A DNA stretch of 40,254 bases from the IMG/VR virus record IMGVR_UViG_2541047843_000009. One strand, given 5' to 3'. Positions 5,454 through 40,254 of this stretch are shown piece by piece. Both the position numbers and the translations under genes were made by a program. Position 1 is the stretch's first letter. The number at the start of each line of letters is the position of its first letter. The notes beneath the pieces were generated by a model. That model was not told where the DNA came from. It ran no database searches and worked only from the letters and a program-made list of their open reading frames with translations. The DNA comes from a virus (taxonomy: Duplodnaviria > Heunggongvirae > Uroviricota > Caudoviricetes).

Positions 5454-5969
5454 TCAGAGGCCGAGGGCGTTGCGGTGCGCTTCCATCAGGTCCACACCGT
5501 CCACAATTTCCACCATGTTGATAAGGTCCACTTCATAGAGCACCTCACCATTGATGGTCAGCTTCGCGTAGCTGTTGGTACTGGTCACTTTGGTGGTGTT
5601 GCTTTCGCCCGTCTTCCACTCGCCGGAATCCACTTCTTTGTGACGTCCACGCACGACAAGCTCCACGGCCTGCACTTCCCCGGTATCGTCACGCTGAATA
5701 GAGCCGGTAAAGCGCAGCTGGATGCCATCCACCGTGGCTTTACCCATCTGTTTAAACAGCAGCAATTCAGTACCACCAATGGAAAATTCTGTGTCCAGCG
5801 CACTGTCATCAAGCCCCAGATCCACATCCACCGCACCCGGCATTCCGCCGCCGCGATACTTCTCATATTTGCGGGTAAATTTCGGCAGCGTCAGCGACTC
5901 AACGATCCCCTGCCAGTTGTTCCCGTCGTTAAACAGGTTCAGGTGTTTTAATTTGCGTGGTAAAGCCAT
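5454..5969 (-). CDS. FII: Tail tube protein FII
   Basis: 171 aa directly downstream of the sheath gene. Confidence 0.85.
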   Translation of the reverse strand: MALPRKLKHLNLFNDGNNWQGIVESLTLPKFTRKYEKYRGGGMPGAVDVDLGLDDSALDTEFSIGGTELLLFKQMGKATVDGIQLRFTGSIQRDDTGEVQAVELVVRGRHKEVDSGEWKTGESNTTKVTSTNSYAKLTINGEVLYEVDLINMVEIVDGVDLMEAHRNALGL

Positions 5970-7151: not shown

Positions 7152-7227
7152 AGTGGCGAACCTCCTGATTGGATTAGGCTTCGCCCTATGTTGAAGTGAT
7201 TGTGCCTGACAAACAGCTAAGCGCAGT

Positions 7228-7245
7228 TGTGTCGTTATTCACACA
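7228..7245 (-). promoter_or_regulatory. Candidate Ogr-dependent late promoter element (TGT-N12-ACA) upstream of FI
   Basis: tgtgtcgttattcacaca lies 77-94 nt upstream of the FI start. Confidence 0.5.
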
Positions 7246-7293
7246 AAATAACGGTATTTGTCTGCTTGCAGGGATAATCAACATAATGCTGAT

Positions 7294-7860
7294 TCAGGGG
7301 GATTCATTGATCTTATTTGCCGGAAATTTTCTATAAATGGTAGAAACGCCTACATCAAAAATCAGTGCAATACGCTGTATTGATTCTCCGGCCTCGAGTA
7401 AACGCCCAATCTGTGCCCACTGTTCGGTGGTCAACTTAGGACGGCGTCCACCTACTCTGCCTTTGGCACGAGCTGCAGCCAGCCCTGCCCTGGTACGTTC
7501 AACTATCAGTTCGCGTTCCATTTCAGCCAGGGCACCCATGACATGAAAAAAGAAACGGCCCATTGGGGTACTGGTATCAATACTGTCAGTCAGGCTTCTG
7601 AAATTCACACCACGCTGGCGCAACTCTTCTATCAGCGTAACAAGATGCCGCATACTGCGCCCCAACCTGTCCAGCTTCCAGACAACCAGCGTGTCTCCTG
7701 CCGATAGTGTCCTGAGTAGTTTTTTCAGCCCCGGTCTGTCGGACTTAGTGCCACTGATTTTGTCCTCAAAAATCTGCTCACATCCCGCGCAGTTCAGTGC
7801 ATTACGTTGCAAATCGGTGTTCTGGTCATTTGTTGACACGCGTACATAGCCAATAAGCAT
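7294..7860 (-). CDS. Serine DNA invertase, Gin/Hin/Pin/Cin family
   Basis: N-terminal MLIGYVRVSTNDQ with the catalytic Ser, VVWKLDRLGRSM motif and C-terminal helix-turn-helix; GGGGG ribosome-binding site before the ATG at 7860. Confidence 0.9.
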   Translation of the reverse strand: MLIGYVRVSTNDQNTDLQRNALNCAGCEQIFEDKISGTKSDRPGLKKLLRTLSAGDTLVVWKLDRLGRSMRHLVTLIEELRQRGVNFRSLTDSIDTSTPMGRFFFHVMGALAEMERELIVERTRAGLAAARAKGRVGGRRPKLTTEQWAQIGRLLEAGESIQRIALIFDVGVSTIYRKFPANKINESP

Positions 7861-7928
7861 GATCATCCCCCTGAATAAAAACCGGAGATGATGCCAGTTA
7901 GCTGTTACCTCTGCATTTTCTTAAACGT

Positions 7929-7944
7929 TGGTTTAGGAGAAGGC
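7929..7944. repeat. Inversion crossover site, left inverted repeat
   Basis: ttggtttaggagaagg is the exact reverse complement of 9704-9719. Confidence 0.7.
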
Positions 7945-8343
7945 TCAGCATTGCCTGTTGGCGTACCTGTTCCGTGGCCTTCAGTCACACCGCCAACAGG
8001 CTGGCTGAAATGCAACGGTGCAGCTTTTTCTGCCGAAGAGTATCCGGAACTGGCAAAAGTTTATCCGACAAATAAATTGCCAGATTTACGCGGCGAATTC
8101 ATTCGTGGGTGGGATGATGGAAGAGGAATTGATTCAGGACGGACTCTCCTGTCTGCTCAGGACGGGAGCATTGAGGCACACGGCCATGATTACAATGGGG
8201 TCATCTATACTTCTAGCGGTCCTTCCTGGGCTAATACGACGGATGCGGGACACCGGGCATATTCGGGATTTACATCATCATATGGCGGGAGCGAAACCCG
8301 TCCACGAAATATTGCATTTAACTATATCGTGAGGGCTGCATAA
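7945..8343 (+). CDS. Silent alternative C-terminal segment of the tail fibre (expressed only after inversion)
   Basis: Ends ...RPRNIAFNYIVRAA, the receptor-binding C-terminus type of lambda Stf; has no start of its own downstream of the crossover site. Confidence 0.6.
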   Translation, partial: SALPVGVPVPWPSVTPPTGWLKCNGAAFSAEEYPELAKVYPTNKLPDLRGEFIRGWDDGRGIDSGRTLLSAQDGSIEAHGHDYNGVIYTSSGPSWANTTDAGHRAYSGFTSSYGGSETRPRNIAFNYIVRAA

Positions 8344-8945
8344 TGGATAACGCCGTATTAAATAGCGAGCTTATTGCCACGAAGGCGGGGAATATTACCG
8401 TCTATAACTATGATGGTGAGACGCGGGAATATATTTCTGCATCAACTGAATATCTTGCAGTGGGTGTCGGTATTCCAGCATATTCCTGTTTAGACGCTCC
8501 TGTTACATCTAAGGCTGGTTATACAATTTGCCGTTCTGTGGATTTAAAATCATGGGAATATGTGTCAGACCATCGCGGTGAAATCGTCTATAACACCGAA
8601 ACGGGAGATGCCAAAGAAATCACAGCACTAGGCGACTATCCCGAAAATACAACCACTATCGCCCCGTTAACGCCATACGATAAATGGGATGGTGAAAAAT
8701 GGGTGACAGATGTTGAGGCACAACACGGTGCCGCAGTAGAAGCGGCAGAAGCACAGCGCCAGTCACTGATTGATGCAGCAATGGCTTCCATCAGTCTGAT
8801 TCAACTGAAATTACAGGCCGGGCGGAAGCTGACGCAGCCAGAAAACACCCGACTTAACGCTGTGCTGGATTATATTGACGCGGTGACGGCAACAGATACC
8901 AGCACAGCGCCAGACGTCATCTGGCCTGAACTGCCGGAGGCGTAG
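8343..8945 (+). CDS. Alternative tail-fibre assembly protein (Tfa/U'-like)
   Basis: 200 aa; start overlaps the stop of the alternative fibre segment; C-terminal DTSTAPDVIWPELPEA motif. Confidence 0.75.
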   Translation: MDNAVLNSELIATKAGNITVYNYDGETREYISASTEYLAVGVGIPAYSCLDAPVTSKAGYTICRSVDLKSWEYVSDHRGEIVYNTETGDAKEITALGDYPENTTTIAPLTPYDKWDGEKWVTDVEAQHGAAVEAAEAQRQSLIDAAMASISLIQLKLQAGRKLTQPENTRLNAVLDYIDAVTATDTSTAPDVIWPELPEA

Positions 8946-9357
8946 GCCATTCAATATCTGGCGCACCGGAAGTATCGACCAGTTCCAGTGCGTCCAGATA
9001 ATCCAGCCACAAATTATATTGCGCCAGTTCCCCACCTTTCAGGCGACCAATCGCCGCTTTACCAGGCCATTGCTTACTGTTTATGTATTCGTTGACCTGA
9101 TTAATCAATTGCTGCTTTTCCAGTTCGGCTGCGGCAATTTGTTCCTCATGAGTTGGCGGTGGAATATCAATCCATGCAGGCATTCCGTCGATGACACCTC
9201 TGTATTTTCCTTCTGGTGCTTCCTTCATAAATTCGGCGGCAACAGTGTCGTCAATTTCGATTCCATCACCGGGCCATTCGCCGGATTCCTGATAAGCGAT
9301 TTTAAGCTCCACAGGGAAAAACGCATTTTTATCGGCACTGAAAATATATTTCTGCAT
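8917..9357 (-). CDS. G: Tail-fibre assembly protein (currently expressed orientation)
   Basis: 146 aa directly after H; C-terminal VDTSGAPDIEWP motif. Confidence 0.8.
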   Translation of the reverse strand: MQKYIFSADKNAFFPVELKIAYQESGEWPGDGIEIDDTVAAEFMKEAPEGKYRGVIDGMPAWIDIPPPTHEEQIAAAELEKQQLINQVNEYINSKQWPGKAAIGRLKGGELAQYNLWLDYLDALELVDTSGAPDIEWPTPPAVQAR

Positions 9358-9359
9358 TT

Positions 9360-10766
9360 CTACCGTCCTATCGAAATATAACTGAATCTGTATTGCTGTG
9401 AGATATCACTGGTTGCCACACGCCACGCTGAATTACTGATATGTTCAAAATTTACAGACAAAACCTGCGGGGCAGGATTCGACGGGTCTGACTGAACGGC
9501 ATCAGACATAACACTGACTGAAACCATCGGCTGATTAGGGAATGGTATAGGGAAGTGTCCACTGATAAAGCGGGTCGTGTTTCCTGAAAAAGTGCCAAAC
9601 TGAACAATATATCCACCTGGTAGCCTGAACCATCCCGAACCAGAAGCGAATGCTCCCATATCCGGTATCTGATTATCTCCTGTGCCCACATCCCTTTTCG
9701 CCGCTTCTCCTAAACCAAGGTATGTGAGAAGACCAGCTACATCCTTTCCACTCAAATTGGTAAGCGTATTGTCCAGCGGTTGTTTACCTGCCAGCGCATT
9801 AAGCATTGTCGTGGCAAAGTTCGGATCATTCCCCAGTGCCGCCGCCAGTTCGTTCAGTGTATCCAGTGCAGCAGGTGCAGAACCCACCATTCCTGCAATC
9901 GCCGATTTCACAAAAGCCGTAGTGGCAATCTGTGTATTGTTGACCGACTGCGCCGCCGTGGGGGCTGTTGGCGTTCCGGTGAGTGCCGGACTCGACAACG
10001 GTGCTTTTAGTGCCAGCGCATTGTTAATGGTGGTACTGAAATTCGGATCATTGTTAATGGCTGCGGCTATTTCTTTCAGCGTGTCCAGCGTGGCTGGCGC
10101 ACCATTAATAAGGGCCGTCAGTGCCGCCTGTACAAACGCAGTGGTCGCAACCTGCGTGGTATTATTCCCCGCCGCTGGCGTTGGCGCTTTGGGGGTTCCG
10201 GTAAATGTCGGGCTGGCTTTTGGCGCGTACTGTGAATGCGGGTCCGGTGCGGCAAGATGTTTTGCCATCTGATCATCCGCGTACACCTTCAGCTCCAGTG
10301 CCTTGTCATCCACATACTTGCGGGTTGCCAGCACTACAGCAGGGTCGATTTTCAGGGTGATATTGTCCGTGCTGCTGGTAATCAGCACCATGCGCACGGT
10401 CTGAGTGCGCCCGCTACCTTCAGCCAGTTGCGGCTTATAGCTTTCCGGGCAGTTGCCCACGGCAATCAATGCCCCGGACTCATCAAACAAGCCCACTTCA
10501 CGTATCCACCAACCGCCCTCGTTTTCAGGGATCACCTGTTCGGCAATAATCTGGCTGCTGTTCTGCGGGTCGATATAAAGCATATTCAGCGCAGCCCGGC
10601 GTTTCTCATTTACCAGTGCCGTCTGCTTTGCGTCCGGCGTTGGCAATACTCCACTGCCATCGCCCACCGCCATATGGGTAATTTTTAGCGGCACACCGAG
10701 CGCGGCGGCGCTGGCAAGTTTCGCCGCGCCAATATCCGTCAGCAGGGTATAAAATTTTGTGCTCAT
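9360..10766 (-). CDS. H: Tail fibre protein H (constant N-terminus, invertible C-terminus)
   Basis: 468 aa; Ala/Thr-rich repeats (TTQVATTAFV..., NDPNF...); the 3' 345 nt lie inside the invertible segment. Confidence 0.85.
   Translation of the reverse strand: MSTKFYTLLTDIGAAKLASAAALGVPLKITHMAVGDGSGVLPTPDAKQTALVNEKRRAALNMLYIDPQNSSQIIAEQVIPENEGGWWIREVGLFDESGALIAVGNCPESYKPQLAEGSGRTQTVRMVLITSSTDNITLKIDPAVVLATRKYVDDKALELKVYADDQMAKHLAAPDPHSQYAPKASPTFTGTPKAPTPAAGNNTTQVATTAFVQAALTALINGAPATLDTLKEIAAAINNDPNFSTTINNALALKAPLSSPALTGTPTAPTAAQSVNNTQIATTAFVKSAIAGMVGSAPAALDTLNELAAALGNDPNFATTMLNALAGKQPLDNTLTNLSGKDVAGLLTYLGLGEAAKRDVGTGDNQIPDMGAFASGSGWFRLPGGYIVQFGTFSGNTTRFISGHFPIPFPNQPMVSVSVMSDAVQSDPSNPAPQVLSVNFEHISNSAWRVATSDISQQYRFSYISIGR
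9704..9719. repeat. Inversion crossover site, right inverted repeat
   Basis: ccttctcctaaaccaa, reverse complement of 7929-7944, located inside the tail-fibre gene H. Confidence 0.7.
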
Positions 10767-22056: not shown

Positions 22057-23466
22057 TTACTCATCTACTCTGATTTTTTGTTTTTTATTATTTTGAGTTA
22101 AGACATTTATGGTAATAGATGTATACGGATGAAAGTCAGGAACTATACTTTTAACCTCTCCATTTTCAAGAAAATGATGTGCTATTGAAGGAAATAAATC
22201 AGGATCTACAGGATATTTAGCATTAGGATTATGATACATATTTAAACCTTCTGCCCATGTTTCTGTAATATCGCCTTCTTTCACTTCAAAACTAAATGCT
22301 GCTGGATATAATGCCTCTGGGTCATGATCATGGCAGTAACCACTCCTAAATAATCTAAGGTCACTTCTTCCAAAACCAGCCAGTTTTCCCATCCGATTAA
22401 ACTTCGATATAGTACCACTATTAGAACTAAGGACGGCCGAAATATTTTCAGACTCATCCAAGAAGAAAAAGCCTGAAGGAATTTCCTTTTTCTCAAATTG
22501 ATGCGATATAATTTTCTTAGTTGCTAAACTGTAACATCCATCTTCAGATTTAACATGCTCATAGCGAATACCATAAAGATACTGCCAAAGTGCACTATGG
22601 GACCAAATCATAGAGTTTGGTTCATGAAAATCAGCAATTGCGAAAATTAAAGGATTCCCCTTAACATGTTCTAGATCCCAGTATCGAGTTTTCTTTTTCA
22701 GTTTAGAATAGAGAGAACTTCCAAATTTAATCGGCATATAATTCTCTATTTTCTCTAGCAATTCTTCCTTACTTTTAGGTTCTGATAGCATTTCAGATGA
22801 TTGATTAATATCATTCCCTGTTGGATTAACCGTTACAGCTTCAATGCAAATAGTATTACCATACTTACGTGCCACATAATCAGGGGCATTAAACTGCCTA
22901 TCTAGCCAAAAGTGTTCCTCTCGTAAATATGCGAAAAGATATAACTCCCATAGCCGGGCATCAAAACCTGTTGTCTGAAACTGCTCTATAAAATTCCCGT
23001 CGACATCCTCAAAATGATTCATCATTTCCTTGATTATCCCTGTTGCAGGCGACCAGTTCGCGTATTTACCAAATAATGAAAAATGATGATGAAGTTTATC
23101 TGGTGTAACTATAGGTGTGAATAAATCCATTGCTTTATAAGTTTCATCACCTTGTGGAAATACTTTTACGTTTAATTTAGTATGCTTCCGCATTAATTTC
23201 TTTAGTTTTGCTCGTGCAGAATTCATTTCTGAAACACTAGTAAATAGGTCAATACATCTATATCTCCCACTTAAGTCTCTTGCTAAAACAATACCGCTAT
23301 AATCTTCATCGATTTGATCCAATAATAGTGCCCCTAGCAGGAACTCTCTCGGACTACAGTACCACTCAAACTCATAGCCTAAAAGTTCAGTATTTGGCAT
23401 TCTGGTCCAATCAACAAAAGCATTAAACCTCTCTTTACTCATTTTTTTTATATCAAGAAAAGACAT
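22057..23466 (-). CDS. Hypothetical 469-aa protein; AT-rich cargo gene, candidate anti-phage defence or abortive-infection protein of unassigned family
   Basis: Long ORF in clearly AT-rich DNA between portal and cos, convergent with Q; GAGGT about 9 nt before the ATG; no Walker A motif; no family recognised. Confidence 0.7.
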   Translation of the reverse strand: MSFLDIKKMSKERFNAFVDWTRMPNTELLGYEFEWYCSPREFLLGALLLDQIDEDYSGIVLARDLSGRYRCIDLFTSVSEMNSARAKLKKLMRKHTKLNVKVFPQGDETYKAMDLFTPIVTPDKLHHHFSLFGKYANWSPATGIIKEMMNHFEDVDGNFIEQFQTTGFDARLWELYLFAYLREEHFWLDRQFNAPDYVARKYGNTICIEAVTVNPTGNDINQSSEMLSEPKSKEELLEKIENYMPIKFGSSLYSKLKKKTRYWDLEHVKGNPLIFAIADFHEPNSMIWSHSALWQYLYGIRYEHVKSEDGCYSLATKKIISHQFEKKEIPSGFFFLDESENISAVLSSNSGTISKFNRMGKLAGFGRSDLRLFRSGYCHDHDPEALYPAAFSFEVKEGDITETWAEGLNMYHNPNAKYPVDPDLFPSIAHHFLENGEVKSIVPDFHPYTSITINVLTQNNKKQKIRVDE

Positions 23467-23787: not shown

Positions 23788-24021
23788 TTAATGCAGCCAG
23801 CTGTCGTCTTCCCACACCTTCTGCATAATTTTCATCACTTGTTTTCTTTCTTCGTCCAGTTGCAGTCCGGTTAGTTCCACACCGTTAGAGCTACCTTTGC
23901 GAATGCGAATTACCGTTTTGGGATACAGGGGGCGCAGATTGCGGTAAAGCTCGGATTCAAGGGCGTCCAGGGTAGACTGGCTAATCTTCTGCTCTTTATC
24001 GATCATTATTTCAATGCGCAT
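23788..24021 (-). CDS. DinI-like protein
   Basis: 77 aa from MRIEIMIDK..., ending ...VWEDDSWLH, resembling DinI; GGTGA ribosome-binding site. Confidence 0.7.
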   Translation of the reverse strand: MRIEIMIDKEQKISQSTLDALESELYRNLRPLYPKTVIRIRKGSSNGVELTGLQLDEERKQVMKIMQKVWEDDSWLH

Positions 24022-24031
24022 AAAAGTCACC

Positions 24032-24220
24032 TCAGCTGATGACATCCATTGAGCGGTTGTATTCGTGGGTTCTGATTTTTGCCATGAGTTCATCAGTCAA
24101 TTCAGAAACCCACTGCAGAGCCAGCCCCTTCTCTTCATCACTACACTCACTAGCCGCTACAAGCTTAAGAAAAAAATCAATGCGCTGGAGCTTCAAAGAC
24201 TCCAAAAAATAGTCCTGCAT
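24032..24220 (-). CDS. Hypothetical small protein (62 aa)
   Basis: AGGAGG 4-5 nt before the ATG at 24220; the longer track ORF is probably an artefact. Confidence 0.5.
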   Translation of the reverse strand: MQDYFLESLKLQRIDFFLKLVAASECSDEEKGLALQWVSELTDELMAKIRTHEYNRSMDVIS

Positions 24221-29705: not shown

Positions 29706-29821
29706 AGTGCAGTATCTCTTAGTTTGGTTTCGTTTTATCTTGTTTTATGTGGTTTGGTTTTGCTTTTCAAACCATGAATGGATATTAAGATCACTTTTTA
29801 TATACGTCAAGAGGTTTGATT
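29706..29821. promoter_or_regulatory. Lysis-lysogeny switch region between the divergent apl and cI genes
   Basis: Direct repeats gtttggttt at 29722-29730 and 29752-29760 in AT-rich DNA. Confidence 0.5.
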
Positions 29822-30454
29822 ATGAGCTTAATCAAAGCGGGAAATGATAGTGGTGGGCGCGATGCAATTAACAGGCTTATTAAGGCTTACAACTTCAGCT
29901 CACGACAGCAGCTCTGCGAACATCTGGAAGTATCCAAAAGCACTATGGCTAACAGATACTTAAGGGATAGCTTTCCTGCCGAATGGGTAATTCAATGTGC
30001 CCTTGAAACAGGAGCTTCCCTTCTATGGCTGGCTACTGGTCAAGGAGATATGTATGCGTGTGAGAACGAAGAAACAAATCTCAAAAATGAACCTCCCGTC
30101 ACTGTAAGACCACTTTCTAAGATCGTTGCTCCTAGCATCAAACGTGTTGAACTGAAGAACGGCGAACTGCAGGCAAGTGATGAAATTCTTATTGATAGCA
30201 GCCTGCTCGATGGTGACTCATCCAACGCTTTATTTGTTAAAACAGCTAATAATAGCTTTGTAGTGGATACGTCCGTTAAACAAGTCAGTAATGGCTTCTG
30301 GTTAGTCGATATGGACGGAGTTAAAAGCATCGTCAAAATTGCGCGCATACCCGGAAACAAAATAGTAGTTAGCCAAGATGACACTTCATTTGAATGTTCT
30401 GTAGATGATGTGGAAGTCGTAGGACGTGCAGTCAAAGTAATCAAGAACCTCTAA
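29822..30454 (+). CDS. cI: CI immunity repressor (186 type)
   Basis: CALETGASLLWLATGQG motif as I recall in 186 CI; start taken at the ATG after GAGG (the track start is a TTG); 210 aa. Confidence 0.8.
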   Translation: MSLIKAGNDSGGRDAINRLIKAYNFSSRQQLCEHLEVSKSTMANRYLRDSFPAEWVIQCALETGASLLWLATGQGDMYACENEETNLKNEPPVTVRPLSKIVAPSIKRVELKNGELQASDEILIDSSLLDGDSSNALFVKTANNSFVVDTSVKQVSNGFWLVDMDGVKSIVKIARIPGNKIVVSQDDTSFECSVDDVEVVGRAVKVIKNL

Positions 30455-30457
30455 CTT

Positions 30458-31474
30458 ATGACCATCAGAAAACAGCCGAACGGAAAATGGTTGTGTGAGT
30501 GCTATCCCAATGGACGCAATGGTAAGCGCGTGCGTAAGCAATTTGCTACCAAAGGCGAAGCCATTGCATTTGAAAGCTTCACAATGGAAGAAGTGAACAA
30601 AAAACCGTGGTTAGGAGAAAAGGATGATCGGCGACACCTATCAGAATTAATTGAGCTTTGGTATTCCCTGTATGGTCAGACACTCGCAGACCCCAAGCGC
30701 CTCATGGCGAAACTTAGAATTATCTGTAATGGTCTAGGCGACCCCATCGCCTCAGAACTGACAGCCGGTGACTTTACGAAATACCGCGAAGCACGGTTAA
30801 AAGGTGAAGTACGAAATGAAGATGGCACGTTTATGTCGCCCGTTAAGCCCCGCACGGTAAACCTTGAACAGCGCAATCTATCATCTGTTTTTGGTACGCT
30901 GAAAAAGCTGGGCCACTGGTCAGCCCCCAACCCGCTTGCTGGGCTGCCAACATTTAAAATTGCTGAGAGTGAATTGGCGTTCCTGACCCCGGAAGAAATT
31001 AAACGTCTGCTGGATGCCTGCGCCGATTCTCAAAGCTCCAGCCTGCTTTTGATTGCAAAAATATGCCTGGCCACCGGCGCACGCTGGAGCGAAGCCGAAA
31101 ACCTGCAGAGTCATCAGGTATCAAAATACCGTATCACTTATACCAAGACCAAAGGCAAGAAAAACCGAACTGTGCCTATTTCTAAGGATTTATATGAAGA
31201 ACTGCCTAAGAATAGGGGGAAGTTATTCACCCCATGCAGAAAAGCCTTTGAGCGTGCAGTAAAGCGGGCTGGTATCGATCTGCCAGAGGGTCAATGTACT
31301 CACGTTCTGCGTCATACATTCGCTAGCCATTTTATGATGAATGGTGGAAACATATTGGTTTTGCGGGATATCCTAGGACATTCAGATATAAAAATGACCA
31401 TGGTCTATGCACACTTCGCCCCAGACCATTTAGAAGATGCCGTAACTAAAAATCCTTTATTTAATTTGAGGTAA
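30458..31474 (+). CDS. int: Tyrosine integrase (P2/186 type)
   Basis: 338 aa; C-terminal ...HVLRHTFASHF...LGHSDIKMTMVYAH catalytic region with the Tyr. Confidence 0.9.
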   Translation: MTIRKQPNGKWLCECYPNGRNGKRVRKQFATKGEAIAFESFTMEEVNKKPWLGEKDDRRHLSELIELWYSLYGQTLADPKRLMAKLRIICNGLGDPIASELTAGDFTKYREARLKGEVRNEDGTFMSPVKPRTVNLEQRNLSSVFGTLKKLGHWSAPNPLAGLPTFKIAESELAFLTPEEIKRLLDACADSQSSSLLLIAKICLATGARWSEAENLQSHQVSKYRITYTKTKGKKNRTVPISKDLYEELPKNRGKLFTPCRKAFERAVKRAGIDLPEGQCTHVLRHTFASHFMMNGGNILVLRDILGHSDIKMTMVYAHFAPDHLEDAVTKNPLFNLR

Positions 31475-31484
31475 GTAGTAATTT

Positions 31485-32153
31485 ATGAATAGCGAACTAG
31501 AGTTACTTATAAAAATATTATTCCCTTCCCTATCTGCCATTATATCCTTATTAGGGCTTAAAACAGGGTGGACTTATAAAAAAGATAAACTATTCACATC
31601 ACGTAAAAACATTAGCGAATTTTCATATCAGATGTATAAAAGCAGTGAAGATCCGACCTTCAAAAAACTGGCGGAAGATTACGGCATTGCTGCATTAACC
31701 AAAGATAACACATTGACAAAAAAACAAAGATTAATATTACTCAACACAACAAACCCCGTTAGCGATATAGATAATTATTCCAAATGTCAAAGTCTAATTT
31801 CCATTACCACCCATAAAGAAATATTCGCATGGAATAAAAAAAGATATAAATACAGCATATATAGAAAATTAATAAAAATCATAACAACTCTAATTTACTT
31901 CATGAGCAGTCTCATCGTAGCACTTCCTTTCAGTTATTCTGTTGTAGTAAGTGCTAAGATGATGGAGAAGATAAACCATCTAACTACTTGGCAATACTTT
32001 GGTTTAAGCAGCTATTTTGTGGTATCGGGAGTAGCAATATGCTTTATCTGCCTAGATAAGCTCTCCAAGATTAAGATCGCCGAGAGATTAATCGTTTCGA
32101 ATAGGCGTTTAGGCGACAAATGCAGTGGCGGCACTTTGGCGGCAGAAAGTTAA
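31485..32153 (+). CDS. Hypothetical AT-rich membrane protein (222 aa, about 3 transmembrane helices); candidate moron or superinfection-exclusion gene
   Basis: Starts 10 nt after the int stop; hydrophobic helices at the N-terminus and around residues 133-157 and 172-191; very AT-rich. Confidence 0.6.
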   Translation: MNSELELLIKILFPSLSAIISLLGLKTGWTYKKDKLFTSRKNISEFSYQMYKSSEDPTFKKLAEDYGIAALTKDNTLTKKQRLILLNTTNPVSDIDNYSKCQSLISITTHKEIFAWNKKRYKYSIYRKLIKIITTLIYFMSSLIVALPFSYSVVVSAKMMEKINHLTTWQYFGLSSYFVVSGVAICFICLDKLSKIKIAERLIVSNRRLGDKCSGGTLAAES

Positions 32154-32237
32154 AAACCCATAAAACGGACAGACACCGCATAAATCTAACCAACTGAAAA
32201 TCAAAGCAAATCATTGTTTTTACAGACATTGAAATGC

Positions 32238-32282
32238 TATGTAGGAATTTCGGACGCGGGTTCAACTCCCGCCAGCTCCACC
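32238..32282 (+). other. ssrA: 45-nt copy of the tmRNA (ssrA) 3' end; prophage att core at the prophage-host junction
   Basis: atgtaggaatttcggacgcgggttcaactcccgccagctccacca matches the ssrA 3' terminus as I recall it; the sequence upstream does not continue as ssrA, so this is a core duplicate. Confidence 0.7.
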
Positions 32283-32386
32283 AATCATGATTGGACGGTG
32301 TAAGGACAACACCAACAAAAACAGGAAGTTAGCAGTCTCAGCAGGACACCGACCAGACGGTGAGGAGACAAAAAAGGATACGCAAA

Positions 32387-32440
32387 GGAGCCGCGGCTCC
32401 CAAGTGACATGAAAGCCCGCATCTGCGGGCTTTTTCGTTT
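32387..32440 (+). terminator. Structured region: 14-nt palindrome (32387-32400) plus an intrinsic terminator hairpin and T-run (32415-32440)
   Basis: ggagccgcggctcc, then gcccgc-atct-gcgggc followed by tttttcgttt. Confidence 0.5.
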
Positions 32441-32583
32441 CATCTGCAAAAATGTCTATACATCAGCCGCCACAAACGGAGCAACAGCCTTTATTGGTGT
32501 GGGTGTTAAATTGACAAGGTACCTGCGACAGGAGATTTCTTGTTTATTTGTAATGCCACTGTTCTTTATCAGGAAGGTGATTA

Positions 32584-32853
32584 ATGGAAAATCTACTTTT
32601 TGTGATGTGTTGGATTAAAGATCATCATGTGATGTCATTAACTTTTGGCGTCTTATCTGCAATTTTATGGATTAAATCTGCTACAGCAAAAGTTGAGTTA
32701 GGCAAAAAAATTGTCATGGTTACGTATGAAGATCCCGAACTTAACGTGAATCTCCATGATTTCTTCGCCACTGCGCGGCTTCAATCTAAGTACAATTCAT
32801 TTGCAGCATTGTCTGCAGCAGCAACCGCGCTATTCCAGATTATTGGTTTGTAA
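32584..32853 (+). CDS. Hypothetical small hydrophobic protein (89 aa)
   Basis: AGGAAGGTGA ribosome-binding site; two hydrophobic segments; AT-rich. Confidence 0.45.
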   Translation: MENLLFVMCWIKDHHVMSLTFGVLSAILWIKSATAKVELGKKIVMVTYEDPELNVNLHDFFATARLQSKYNSFAALSAAATALFQIIGL

Positions 32854-32991
32854 TGCTTACCAGCCCCAAATTAATCAATACCCAGTGGTATTAGCAATGT
32901 CCGCTTCAAGTACATACATTCTTAAGACATTTGGGCACTGTCATGTCTGTCGGGGGAGTAGGTTAAAATCCTCTCGTGCAAAATTTCTTAG

Positions 32992-33354
32992 CTAGAGAAT
33001 ACAAAGAACATCATCTGGTGTTAACACAGAGTCTTCTACGTACTCAGGGTGGTTACGTAATACATCTCTCTGATGTCTCAAGATCTGCGCTGGAATTTCT
33101 TGCTCATCCACAATTTTGGCAGTATCCAGCAAAATACTGCCACACCTTATTTCCAGCAAAACAAAGCGATTCCACTCTGGACCGTTAGAACACAAAAGGT
33201 CAAACAAAACCTCACCTGTAGCCTGTGAATTGCCCAGTATAACAGAAAGCCTCTTCTCGATTTCGTGAACTGAAGTCAAGGGGTTCTCGTAGCCAGTCGC
33301 CATAACGACGGCAATGAGAGCCCCTGAGACGTTAACACCTGTTATTTCAAACAA
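32992..33354 (-). CDS. rnlB: RnlB-like antitoxin
   Basis: 120 aa; start overlaps the rnlA-like stop by 8 nt; resembles E. coli RnlB (from memory). Confidence 0.65.
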   Translation of the reverse strand: MFEITGVNVSGALIAVVMATGYENPLTSVHEIEKRLSVILGNSQATGEVLFDLLCSNGPEWNRFVLLEIRCGSILLDTAKIVDEQEIPAQILRHQRDVLRNHPEYVEDSVLTPDDVLCIL

Positions 33355-34417
33355 TATACAAATCCTTAATAATTCCCCATGCCTGTCTGGCCTTAGTCAT
33401 CAGTCGTGCCATGTCAGAAACCATACGGCTTGTGTCGACAACTATCTCCATATGGAACAGGCCATGACGTTCTCTGTTAAAGAAAGTATAGGCATCATTA
33501 ATGGTCTTAACCTTAGCTGACGATAAATTGCATCCAAATTGTTGTTTCAGAATAAATTCACTCCCAATTTTATCAAAATAAGGTCCGAAACCATCCTGCG
33601 TGATTGGCATGCCATATCGGTACATTGTTGATTTAAGTACTCCCTCAACTGAACGTAATTCAGGATACAACAACATACAGTAATCGGGTAAATCGGGGGC
33701 GGCGAGTTTAACACACAGCCCAGAAACGAGCAATTTTTCAACATTCTTATGCAATAGTGGGTACGCATCCCCCATTTCACACTCTAGATGTGAGCGAGCA
33801 ACTTCTTTCTGAACTATATACGCTTTGCCATCGTCCTGACGAATGAGAACTTTTTCCAGACCTTGTAAATCGAGTAGCTCTGACAAGTTGAATATAAACA
33901 CTCTATAACATGACAATGGACGCCCTTGTATTTGTAGTGTTCCATTTCTGTGATGCAGACTAACTGTCAACTCATCCTGAAATTCTGGCGAATGAATTTT
34001 CCACACCGTTGTATGAGTGTTCCGTAAGTATTCGTAAAATTGTATATGTGGCTGCTCTGCTGAGAGCTGAAGTACAGATAAAACGTTCGCTTCAACGAAC
34101 CCTTGTAACACCATATTTACCTGTTCAAATTCTGCAGGATTGATGGTTTCATAGAGATTATCAGCCAACTCTTTGCCAAGATTATGATTAGCTCCTGTTT
34201 GATACTGGACTGTAGACGTCCCTCCGTTATTATAGAAAATGTTAACAGTTGCCAAAGCTTCTCCTGGTTTAGCAAACACAACCCGAAGTCCTGCTCTTGT
34301 ACCAGGCATTGGTCCAATTGAATGGACGGAATAGTTTTTATTTTCAATAAATGCCCTAGACGTAGCCTCAATAGTTGTCCGATCCAAATTTAAATTAGTG
34401 TAGTTCCTGACTGTCAT
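33347..34417 (-). CDS. rnlA: RnlA-like endoribonuclease toxin (RNase LS family)
   Basis: 356 aa from MTVRNYTNLNL..., resembling the E. coli RnlA N-terminus and length (from memory); two-gene operon with the antitoxin. Confidence 0.65.
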   Translation of the reverse strand: MTVRNYTNLNLDRTTIEATSRAFIENKNYSVHSIGPMPGTRAGLRVVFAKPGEALATVNIFYNNGGTSTVQYQTGANHNLGKELADNLYETINPAEFEQVNMVLQGFVEANVLSVLQLSAEQPHIQFYEYLRNTHTTVWKIHSPEFQDELTVSLHHRNGTLQIQGRPLSCYRVFIFNLSELLDLQGLEKVLIRQDDGKAYIVQKEVARSHLECEMGDAYPLLHKNVEKLLVSGLCVKLAAPDLPDYCMLLYPELRSVEGVLKSTMYRYGMPITQDGFGPYFDKIGSEFILKQQFGCNLSSAKVKTINDAYTFFNRERHGLFHMEIVVDTSRMVSDMARLMTKARQAWGIIKDLYIV

Positions 34418-34476
34418 TTGCTTAACCCTATAAAAAACTTTAGCAAACTCTACAATATAGCCCCTCTTTAGTCTAA

Positions 34477-34760
34477 TCAGGCGCTGTATCCTGAAATCGG
34501 GTACCGATAATATCCCTCCTGCAGCCATGTGTTGGTGTTAACAAGATACTGTGTATCAATTGAATCCGTCAGACTGCAAAAGTTGATACCTCTTTCGCGC
34601 AGTTCCTCCACCAGCACGACAAGATGCCTCATACTGCGCCTCAGTCGGTCCAGTTTCCAGACCACCAGAGTGTCACCTGCCGATAATGTCCTGAGAAATT
34701 TTTTAGCCCGGGTCTTTCGGGCGTTGTAACGCTGATTTTATCTTCAAAATCAGCGCGCAT
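34477..34760 (-). pseudogene. Truncated, frameshifted Pin-type DNA invertase remnant
   Basis: MVWKLDRLRRSMRHLVVLVEELRERGINFCSLTDSIDT matches the central part of the invertase at 7294-7860; DNA similarity continues upstream out of frame; the C-terminal helix-turn-helix half is missing. Confidence 0.7.
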
Positions 34761-34817
34761 TCTTCTTAGGCCAGCAAGTTCTTATATGTGACGTGACTGT
34801 GGCTACAACAGATACGA

Positions 34818-34880
34818 TTATTCCATAACAGGGCTTGCAGGCCACTCAATATCCGGTGCAGTTGATGTATCAACACGATT
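34818..34880 (-). pseudogene. Tail-fibre assembly gene remnant (C-terminal about 20 codons only)
   Basis: ...[19 protein letters not shown] matches the C-terminal motif of the Tfa proteins at 8343-9357; upstream codons are not protein-like. Confidence 0.55.
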
Positions 34881-34953
34881 CAACAACACCCGATACTTCT
34901 TCCATGCTGAAAGCAATGATGCCGTTCCTAAGTTGCATTTACAGCCACCTTTT

Positions 34954-35250
34954 TCACCCGCGCTCAACCAACAACCAGACCAGCAGACACGCCACCACCG
35001 GCACAGCAAAATCCATCAGGCTTGCCACATCCCACGCGCGCGGATCAAAACCGCCCCACCACGGCATATTCATACGCTTGCCATGCCCGAACATTTCAAT
35101 CCAGCGATATTCTGCCTGGGTGTGCTCACGCGCAATGAAGAACGTACAACCGGCTATCGCACCGTAAGCCCACTTTCCGGTAAAAAGACCAACCAGTACC
35201 TGTGCGACCACAGCACAAAGTGCATGAAGTAAGGGACTTATATCCATCAT
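34954..35250 (-). CDS. Hypothetical small membrane protein (98 aa)
   Basis: Two hydrophobic helices; lies downstream of the lambdoid tail-fibre genes. Confidence 0.5.
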
Positions 35251-35259
35251 TTCCTCCTT

Positions 35260-35538
35260 TCAGCTCCATTCCCGAAGCGGAGTTTCCAGCTCCACGTCAT
35301 AATCCGAGAATACAGAAACATCAAACAAGTCATCAAGAATGCGAATGTTGACAAAATAACCGTCATTCCGGATACAGACAGGTTCTCCCTCTTCTGTTAC
35401 CCCTGTTTCTGTGTAGGTGAAACCAATTTCATCAACTAACAGTTTATTCTGGAGGTCTTCATCTTCCGCCCAGCCAAGAGATGACAGGAAGGCCTTAAAC
35501 TGCAGTTTGTCATGAAACTTCAAAGTTAAATCTTTCAT
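35260..35538 (-). CDS. Hypothetical acidic protein coupled to stf; possible tail-fibre chaperone
   Basis: 92 aa; start overlaps the stf stop (ATGA). Confidence 0.5.
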   Translation of the reverse strand: MKDLTLKFHDKLQFKAFLSSLGWAEDEDLQNKLLVDEIGFTYTETGVTEEGEPVCIRNDGYFVNIRILDDLFDVSVFSDYDVELETPLREWS

Positions 35539-37601
35539 ACGGCCTCTTTTAATTGCCTGTCATTTAATTCTTTATGCCATATGCGGAAATTGCGAATATG
35601 GCCAAACAGATGTCGTTCTCCAGTATTCGTCTGCCCTCCAAATCGGATATTTTTATCAGCGGTCACGCCATTATATTCACAATAAACTTCATTAACCGCT
35701 TTACCATTTGTCACCACATGAAAGTGACCATCAGCTTTTGCAATACATCCAAATGTGGTTTTCTCTGCAAATACATCTGTCGCTGCGCTATTAACATACG
35801 AGCCTGAAGGGTTTGACAGACTCATATATAACTTACCACTACCTCTGTTGATTGCTGCAATTGCTGATTGCCCGGTATTGGCTGCTGCTATATCCCACAC
35901 GCGGGGTGCGGCGTTTGGTGCAATATCCCAGTTTTTATGAATCTCAAGTAAAAAAGTAAATGGTAACTTATAAAGATTATTTCTGGTGGGGATACTAACC
36001 AAATCACTGGCTCTTGTCGTTGCGCTGCCTCCTGAAATAATAAATGATGATACACACGGCCCATTCTCTACTTGTGGGGTGGCAAGATAAATATAGTCAC
36101 CAGATACTGTTGCCCCACCCTGCTTAGGAGAATACTGTATCTGAGAGCCTATTTTTAACTCACCATCAATTGCCTGAATCGTTGCCTCTGCAAAAATCCA
36201 GCCTGTGGTCTTATCCTTCCTGACTCGTGCCGTAATTCTGCCGGAAGCACCACCTGTCATATTAATTTCAAGCGTTTGCGTATCAATGTACGCATCGCCA
36301 AGAAAAGTTGTTGCACTACCATCATACTTATCAAACCGGATACGTAACCTTACCTGTCGTTCTGTTTTAAAACGACATGAGGTTGTCACGTACTTGTTAT
36401 CGCCTGAGACATCAACTGACTTTGTTGCAGCAATTGATGCCATATTAATAGCCGAGGTTTGCCCAATCAGAGAATCGTTGCAGACAAACTTTCCATATGT
36501 AAAACCAAAACAATCCGTCCCGGTTTCGGGCACATCCATGTTTGACGACCTCCCCCAGCTGGCTGGACTTTCCGAATTGAGCATGTAGTTCGTTCTTTGC
36601 CCCTCAATAAGCAGGCCATCACACTCAAATCGCGGCTCATTAATTTCCGCCGTTTTCAGTTCGCCAGATTTGTTGATATATGTTGCCGTTGATGCGCGAC
36701 TGAAATTAACCTGTTTATCATCGGCGACCTGAACCACATCGTCACCAATGGCTATTTTTTTATAGCCCGGAGAAAACCCCGCAATCATATCCAGTGAATC
36801 GTTAAACGGTATCCACACATCAGGCAGCGGCGGCACTATATTCGCATAGGGCTCTGCAGTCACCTCCGCAGCGGCTTCTGCGCGGTCTGCCGCCTTTTCA
36901 GCTCGTGTCGCTGCTAACAGAGCCTCATCCTTTTTCTGCCCGGCCTTTGTTGCGTCTGCTGCGGCCTCCCGCGCTTTTGTGGTGGCAGTTTCAGCTGCAG
37001 TTGTCGCTGATGATGCTTCACGACGTGCTGCGTCAGCATTTTCTGCGGATTTCTCCTCTGACGCCCGGGCATTAGTCTCTGAAAGTGATGCTGATGTTGC
37101 TGCTTTTTCTGATGCTGTTTTAGAAGATGCAGCAGCTTTCGCGCTGTTACCTGCATTCGTCTCTGATGTTTTCGCCGCGTTCCTGGACGATGCCGCTGCA
37201 GTTTCGGATTTCTTTGCCGCCGCTGCGCTCTGAGAGGCGACTTCAGCGTTGCGTGCCGCCTCTTCCACCATCTTTTCAAAACGATACAGTGCCTCCGGAC
37301 GAACATCATCTTCTGTTGCAGCGCCCAGAAAATCATTCAATGTCCCCGGTTTAGAATCCTCATACACGGTAATGGTCCCGGCATGTGAAGGCGGAAAACC
37401 TTCAACCAACAGGGTGACGCTGTACTGGCCATACTCAACATCCATGCTGTAACGCCCGGCTTCATCCGGATTTTCAGAGGCCACCGTGTTCACCAGTACC
37501 GTGGTGCTGTTACGTTTTGCTTTGAGCTGAATGGTGCAGTTCTGTATCGGTTTTCCTGCACCGTCTTTCAGCACGCCTGAAATCTGTACTGCCATATTCA
37601 C
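35535..37601 (-). CDS. stf: Lambdoid side tail fibre protein
   Basis: N-terminus MAVQISGVLKDGAGKPIQNCTIQLKA... matches lambda Stf; Ala/Ser-rich low-complexity shaft; distinct C-terminal domain. Confidence 0.85.
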   Translation of the reverse strand: MNMAVQISGVLKDGAGKPIQNCTIQLKAKRNSTTVLVNTVASENPDEAGRYSMDVEYGQYSVTLLVEGFPPSHAGTITVYEDSKPGTLNDFLGAATEDDVRPEALYRFEKMVEEAARNAEVASQSAAAAKKSETAAASSRNAAKTSETNAGNSAKAAASSKTASEKAATSASLSETNARASEEKSAENADAARREASSATTAAETATTKAREAAADATKAGQKKDEALLAATRAEKAADRAEAAAEVTAEPYANIVPPLPDVWIPFNDSLDMIAGFSPGYKKIAIGDDVVQVADDKQVNFSRASTATYINKSGELKTAEINEPRFECDGLLIEGQRTNYMLNSESPASWGRSSNMDVPETGTDCFGFTYGKFVCNDSLIGQTSAINMASIAATKSVDVSGDNKYVTTSCRFKTERQVRLRIRFDKYDGSATTFLGDAYIDTQTLEINMTGGASGRITARVRKDKTTGWIFAEATIQAIDGELKIGSQIQYSPKQGGATVSGDYIYLATPQVENGPCVSSFIISGGSATTRASDLVSIPTRNNLYKLPFTFLLEIHKNWDIAPNAAPRVWDIAAANTGQSAIAAINRGSGKLYMSLSNPSGSYVNSAATDVFAEKTTFGCIAKADGHFHVVTNGKAVNEVYCEYNGVTADKNIRFGGQTNTGERHLFGHIRNFRIWHKELNDRQLKEAV

Positions 37602-37610
37602 TCCACAAAT

Positions 37611-37635
37611 AAAAAAGGCGCCATTTCTGGCGCCC
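37611..37635 (-). terminator. Hairpin with T-tract between J and stf
   Basis: ggcgcc-atttct-ggcgcc followed on the minus strand by six T. Confidence 0.5.
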
Positions 37636-37653
37636 GTATTTGGGTTATAAAAT

Positions 37654-40254
<2,601 letters not shown>

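Follow-up and report, generated by a model that had tools for sequence, protein, structure and literature searches.

A probably inert scar of an invertase pseudogene and a tfa remnant between the tail fibre genes and the ssrA attachment site of a lambdoid prophage

The window analysed here, a stretch of 40,254 nucleotides of Caudoviricetes DNA (IMG/VR record IMGVR_UViG_2541047843_000009), matched E. coli prophages in all of its pieces, at 90-99% identity. From position 1 to ~32283 it consisted of a P2/186-like prophage, ending at a 3' fragment of the tmRNA gene ssrA (32194..32283, plus strand) that represents an attachment-site copy. This fragment was detected with Rfam only at a relaxed threshold (tmRNA, E=3e-9), and the match to E. 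coli JJ1886 described below also starts in ssrA; ARAGORN reported no tRNA or tmRNA over the window, the ssrA piece being below its size reach. Because the fragment has the P2/186-like prophage to its left and a lambdoid end to its right, we read the arrangement as two prophages in tandem at ssrA. The tandem junction (31300-33100) was not covered to 80% or more by any complete E. coli genome of the collection. The P2/186-like prophage included GPA and portal genes, and its end near ssrA held a CI-type repressor (29816-30454), an integrase (30458-31474) and a 222-aa ORF of PHROG 21256. Beside its portal gene, a 469-aa ORF (22057-23466, minus strand) matched PD-T7-1 in PADLOC (E=1e-196) without a Pfam domain and looks, from this match, like anti-phage cargo of the P2-like prophage. 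A DinI-like ORF (23788-24093, minus strand; PF06183, E=1e-22) lay near the homologue of replication gene A.

On the lambdoid side, the minus-strand order was J (40239-37654), the side tail fibre gene stf, ORFs of 92 and 98 aa, a scrap of the tail fibre assembly gene tfa, a spacer, a relic of a pin-type invertase gene, a linker, rnlA, rnlB and the ssrA fragment. Both scraps thus lay downstream of the lambdoid stf, where the initial annotation of this DNA had put them. The stf gene (35535..37601, minus strand; 688 aa; PHROG 1419) encoded a lambdoid N-terminal domain (PF08400, E=6e-68) and a C-terminal part not of the tfa type. The ORFs of 92 aa (35260..35538, minus strand; PHROG 1361) and 98 aa (34954..35250, minus strand; PHROG 1443) were assigned to a replacement fibre-tip module, which appears to have displaced tfa. 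As a whole, the fibre-tip module (34954-37601, minus strand) was a mosaic, with a lambdoid Stf N-terminus, a C-terminus like PHROG 1419 and Laminin_G_3, and the two small ORFs in place of tfa. By eye, the 98-aa product looks hydrophobic and possibly membrane-spanning.

At the other side of the scraps, abutting the 3' break of the invertase relic, were rnlA (33347..34420, minus strand), encoding the RNase LS toxin with four RnlA Pfam domains, and the antitoxin gene rnlB (32992..33354, minus strand); both bear these names in the PGAP annotation of JJ1886. The RnlA N-terminal, RnlA_toxin and DBD/HEPN domains and the adjacent RnlB all scored above Pfam cut-offs, so that the pair is predicted to be a type II toxin-antitoxin system. 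Homology to rnlAB of K-12 covered window positions 33008-34464 at 73% DNA identity. The complete RnlA/RnlB cassette (32992-34420, minus strand; 73% to rnlAB of K-12 CP4-57) sits where the 3' half of the invertase was lost. Defence-type cargo past tfa and pin varied among prophages. The window shares rnlAB with JJ1886 and strain 410; a DEAD/DEAH helicase pair (helicase plus hypothetical gene) takes its place in strains C4 and LB858871, while strain Z1323PEC0012 has a McrBC-like pair and e14 has mcrA.

The invertase relic (34549..34763, minus strand; 215 nt) corresponded to nt 75-290, or codons ~25-97 of 184, of pinE from the e14 element of K-12, and contained three 1-nt indels. Among named genes pinE was the closest (86.4% identity over 213 nt). 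Alignments placed the start of pin homology in the window at 34549 or 34553 and its end at 34763. The initial annotation had begun the feature at 34477, which holds for the open frame; positions 34477-34548, however, are read-through of unrelated sequence to the next stop. The similarity it had noticed to the intact invertase of the P2-like prophage (7294..7866, minus strand; 190 aa; Resolvase and HTH_7 domains) was real: the alignment it proposed for 34477-34900, run as a blastn comparison of 34400-35050 with 7200-9400, paired 34547-34749 with 7569-7771 at 156 of 204 positions (76%, E=2e-38), and the relic was indeed out of frame. A second, short match in this comparison paired up the tfa ends. 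Some 150 phage invertases (P2-like, Mu-like and P1/P7) matched the relic at 70-83%, all ending at the same two boundaries, and together with the 86% to pinE and the 76% to 7294-7866 these identities support descent from the Gin/Pin/Hin/Cin family.

The gene had been described as truncated at its 3' end; this stands, and the 5' end is cut as well. Absent from the relic were pinE nt 1-74, the first 24 codons with the catalytic serine region, and all sequence past nt ~290 of 555, with the E-helix and HTH_7. Accordingly, a search for the catalytic serine motif (YVRVST..., first ~24 codons) found none in the relic, where tfa flank stands upstream of nt 75. Nor did Pfam recover a full resolvase catalytic domain in one open frame, given the three indels: ORF 34477-34665 matched positions 68-106 of the 145 in Resolvase (E=2e-9), and the longest frame held nothing more of that domain. 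No C-terminal HTH_7 domain was found downstream of the relic, which is followed by unrelated linker and then rnlA. Being cut at both ends, the relic lacks both the catalytic N-terminus and the HTH. The 84-nt linker (34465..34548), bounded by the end of K-12 rnlAB homology at 34464 and the start of pin homology, matched neither the K-12 rnlAB flanks nor any invertase.

The tfa remnant (34818..34944, minus strand) comprised the last ~34-42 codons including the stop. A tfa C-terminal fragment had been recognized before, correctly, as the alignment to JJ1886 tfa and the match to Caudo_TAP indicate, though it had been put at 20 codons. Its counterpart in JJ1886, where tfa is intact at 585 nt, was nt 457-585; the two were almost the same over the final ~100 nt, with indels and decay before that. 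Identity to the intact 3' end was 98%, and homology broke at ~34919-34944. Identity to the tfa 3' ends of the K-12 Rac and Qin prophages was 86%. Pfam matched Caudo_TAP (PF02413) positions 101-130 of 131 in the remnant (E=4e-14), and a full-length domain with a start codon was not present there. In strain C4 the scrap was joined to the same 98-aa ORF, and PGAP lists it there as an N-terminally truncated tail fiber assembly protein. The reading of the scrap as a piece of an inversion module did not survive, as it lay on the same strand as stf and was 98% identical to the 3' end of an ordinary intact tfa. On this evidence we regard it as the 3' end of the resident tfa rather than an inverted tfa' copy.

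Rfam also gave a partial match to IS009 (RF02111) at 34861-34956 (minus strand), overlapping the tfa remnant. At the gathering threshold, IS009 matches lay wholly within the sense strand of the coding sequences of tfaR, tfaQ and JJ1886 tfa (comparator loci L003, positions 5755-5953; L004, 4345-4543; and L001, 6561-6759), and the partial match is explained by the family sitting inside tfa. Rfam lists IS009 as an RNA gene; its matches may merely follow tfa genes.

Only 54 nt separated the tfa stop from the pin relic (34764..34817, minus strand). This spacer is the natural 3' flank of this type of tfa and not invertase-derived, since it also stands behind tfa where pin is absent: strain Z1323PEC0012 had the same flank after tfa and no pin relic, the match beginning at window position 34772. 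We had considered the spacer as a heavily decayed pin 5' end, on a weak MAFFT alignment to pin nt 1-74, and rejected this reading, as identity falls abruptly at nt 75, from ~86-98% to near random.

To locate crossover sites, the window was scanned with the consensus TTnTCnnAAACC NN GGTTTnnGAnAA (18 specified positions), in which TTnTCnnAAACC is the half-site of crossover sites of ~26 bp; it was drawn from the inverted repeat 7916-7942 / 9704-9730 of the intact system and from Din-family sites. Over the whole window, 17 of 18 positions were matched at 7916 and 9705 only, and the next best score was 13. These two are the sites of the P2-like prophage itself, one adjoining the intact invertase (7916..7941) and the other inside a P2-like tail fibre gene (9705..9730). 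The region 7294-9730 seems to form a complete inversion system, with alternative fibre ends and tfa genes on opposite strands, and parts of it were 82-86% identical to the e14 P region. As a positive control, the scan recovered both known ends of the e14 P segment, at 17 of 18 each. Around the relic (34300-35300) the best score was 11 of 18, a background value met by 37 positions in the window.

These results bear on an earlier proposal that the lambdoid prophage holds a decayed second inversion system on which the intact invertase at 7294-7866 could still act through surviving sites. Action in trans between prophages is real, the P segment of e14 being inverted by PinQ from the Qin prophage (PMC12529663), and an intact invertase that belongs to the relic's family is encoded in the window; the idea was thus reasonable in principle, and it is the substrate that is missing. 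The search for crossover-like repeats near the relic, which had been suggested along with it, yielded none above background, and the window has no sites but the two in the P2-like prophage. Region 32100-37700 was also free of inverted repeats of 16 nt or longer, and no ORF for an alternative fibre C-terminus or tfa' ran antiparallel to stf between that gene and the relic. The Fis-dependent enhancer of such systems lies in the 5' part of the invertase gene, and that of P7 is annotated at cin nt 19-86; with the relic starting at nt 75, ~12 nt of the equivalent would be left, by positional homology only, so that the enhancer may be mostly lost, and a surviving one was set aside on these positional grounds. 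Since no crossover site survives in the lambdoid part as a substrate, trans-inversion there is unsupported, and we consider a still drivable system very improbable. Nothing in the scar appears able to catalyse or to undergo inversion.

We evaluated how widely the relic occurs and found at least 80% of window 34540-34960 in ~120 of 5426 complete E. coli genomes; ~2900 E. coli genomes matched the relic in this search. In JJ1886 (ST131), window 32239-34919 was matched at 98.8%, covering the ssrA interior, a hypothetical gene, rnlB, rnlA, the pseudogene and, beyond it, an intact tfa. The pseudogene there, P423_RS30830, lies between rnlA and tfa and is described by PGAP as 'recombinase family protein; frameshifted; incomplete; missing N-terminus and C-terminus'. 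It and its equivalents carry the same allele, 98-99% identical from the ssrA fragment through rnlB, rnlA and the pin relic to the tfa 3' end. JJ1886 differs from the window in its intact 194-aa Tfa and 1008-aa Stf, where the window has another fibre-tip module and the tfa tail only. The relic is therefore already known, as standard annotation flags it in many E. coli genomes, and since PGAP already annotates the pseudogene in JJ1886 and equivalents the feature is not new. What the collection did not contain was the exact combination seen in the window: no complete E. coli genome carried at least 80% of 34300-35300, and the 50-nt junction between the tfa relic and the 98-aa ORF had no exact match in a species-representative genome collection.

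The same comparison disposes of the view that the gene is really intact and only seems frameshifted and truncated through errors of sequencing or assembly. The initial annotation had allowed for an intact full-length frame to emerge on resequencing, but the gene has lost both of its ends, which goes beyond a shift in frame, and many complete genomes, each sequenced independently, carry the allele at 98-99% identity. No point in favour of error was found; we excluded a sequencing artefact as the cause and regard an intact gene here as scarcely conceivable.

Could the relic instead have been co-opted to regulate rnlA or the fibre operon, for instance in the form of a promoter, a terminator or a small RNA? 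Its 98% conservation among rnlAB carriers would fit, as would a weak terminator-like hairpin at 34720-34733 (plus strand) and a 9-bp stem, GCTGATTTT/AAAATCAGC, read from the sequence, that the relic creates. Yet the high identity would be expected just as well if the whole block of 2.7 kb had a recent common ancestor, no sigma-70-like promoter was found in 34300-35300 (1.3 expected by chance), and the pin part matched no Rfam family. We think such a role quite improbable.

More about the origin of the relic could be learned from carriers that differ in what flanks it. Strain 410 matched window 32256-34763 at 98.3%, the match stopping exactly at 34763, and had the same break between rnlAB and the pin 3' end. 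Its pin runs on to the start codon (nt 1-290 kept), including nt 1-74 that are lost in the window. Beyond pin there followed a pix-like site (16 of 18 positions), a gp53-like fibre end and tfa' on the plus strand, and a second site (14 of 18) in a minus-strand fibre gene; the fibre gene beside rnlAB in this strain was without the lambdoid N-terminal domain. With its inverted segment still in place, strain 410 represents an intermediate state. In strain H105, a lambdoid prophage with the genes L-K-I-J-lom-stf had the complete layout stf-tfa-tfa'-stf'-pin, although its recombinase was truncated, with one site of 18 of 18 adjoining the recombinase and another of 15 of 18 inside stf. Past this inversion layout, the H105 locus (L011, NZ_CP021454.1 2649800-2666000) held two more tfa 3' scraps and a methyltransferase, and tfa tails seem to pile up in this cargo region. 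Strains C4 and LB858871 shared the junction of tfa flank to pin nt 75 with the window, but their relics reach pin nt ~325 and abut the helicase cargo.

A detailed comparison, limited to five other E. coli loci (JJ1886, C4, LB858871, strain 410 and K-12 e14) where carriers number more than 120, divided the relic in two. In the six-way alignment, positions 34763-34696 differed from strain 410 at 16 of 68 sites and from C4 at 3 of 68. Over 34695-34549 the pattern was reversed, with 4 differences in 147 from strain 410 (97% identical) and 35 in 147 from C4. The contrast between the 5' and 3' portions was significant by Fisher's test for strain 410 (p=4e-6) and, in the opposite direction, for C4 (p=4e-4). 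Both -1 frameshifts fell in the C4-like part, and strain 410 was without them. The relic is thus, by these alignments, a chimera of a 5' third (34696..34763, minus strand) like that of C4 and LB858871, apparently inherited with the tfa flank, and 3' two-thirds (34549..34695, minus strand) like those of strain 410, apparently inherited with the rnlAB cassette. On the simplest reading, homologous recombination would have had its crossover within the pin remnant, somewhere between window positions 34696 and 34678.

The likeness to strain 410 also suggests that the pin relic might be foreign to this lambdoid lineage and was imported whole with rnlAB from an e14-like element. In that strain the 97% identical 3' two-thirds accompany rnlAB next to a fibre gene with no lambdoid N-terminus, and the closest named gene is e14 pinE and not the lambdoid pinR or pinQ. 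The 5' third, however, which contains the two frameshifts and the junction to the tfa flank, is common to the lambdoid prophages of C4 and LB858871, which have other cargo and another 3' break. Because it is shared by lambdoid prophages of different cargo, this third was once resident beside a lambdoid tfa, so that import is true for part of the relic only; as an account of the whole it is unlikely.

Known systems show what such a module looks like when complete. In K-12, e14 has a full pinE of 184 codons, two sites (17 of 18 each) and an invertible segment of stfP/tfaP/tfaE/stfE', none of which the window copy has; of pinE, the relic retains nt 75-290 at 86% nucleotide identity. The e14 element also resembles the window in its cargo, with the defence gene mcrA directly beyond pin as rnlAB is here. 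The G (Mu), C (P1/P7) and Min (p15B) systems and that at 7294-9730 in the window use invertases of the same family as the relic; unlike it, they retain all components, from the invertase and its two crossover sites to the enhancer and the alternative fibre ends. In the cryptic lambdoid prophages Rac and Qin of K-12, pinR and pinQ lie just past stf-tfa with no local invertible segment. Unlike the relic they are intact, and they are convergent with tfa and too divergent for a blastn match to it; PinQ is the invertase that acts in trans on e14 (PMC12529663).

We consider it highly probable that the cargo end of the lambdoid prophage carries, in the stretch from its tail fibre genes to the ssrA attachment site, an inert scar made of two parts with separate histories. 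From the directly observed sequence relationships we infer an order of events and a mechanism of recombination as follows. The ancestor would have carried an inversion module of the form stf-tfa-[tfa'-stf']-pin. A deletion, from just past the tfa stop to pin nt 75, would have removed the invertible half, the crossover site and pin nt 1-74, fusing the tfa 3' flank to pin nt 75 and leaving the co-directional layout stf-tfa-spacer-pin'. In a separate event, the 3' half of pin would have been cut at nt ~290 beside an RnlA/RnlB cassette. Homologous recombination within the pin remnant may then have joined the lineage with tfa flank and pin 5' relic to that with pin 3' relic and rnlAB. Finally, recombination in the conserved tfa 3' end would have brought in the new fibre tip, that is, the Stf C-terminus and the two small ORFs, leaving the last ~40 tfa codons behind. 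This latest swap is pieced together from its two halves, as no complete E. coli genome has the exact combination across 34300-35300. The shared nt-75 junction and the mosaic could in principle stem from other sequences of recombination, the order being unprovable from extant genomes. An eroded fibre-inversion module, as first proposed, is therefore partly right: strain 410 and H105 indicate that pin came from a Pin-type module, but the relic, a mosaic, did not simply decay in place.

In itself the relic matters little; it was correctly spotted and is an ordinary pseudogene scar. Its modest value would be as a marker, suggesting that a Pin-type fibre-switching module was present in the ancestry of this lambdoid lineage, that its fibre tip was later replaced wholesale, and that a predicted anti-phage RnlAB toxin-antitoxin cassette now occupies the former position of the invertase. 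The mosaic offers a small, concrete case of leftover homology letting prophages shuffle tail fibre and defence modules. We tentatively raise the possibility, on balance doubtful, that homologous recombination repeatedly uses the dead pin fragment, and also the conserved 3' end of tfa, as a linker when lambdoid prophages exchange the defence cargo that lies between their tail fibre genes and attachment site. If so, the chimeric relic would be one recorded exchange, and invertase relics would both mark and help to mobilise a hotspot of defence cargo in such prophages.
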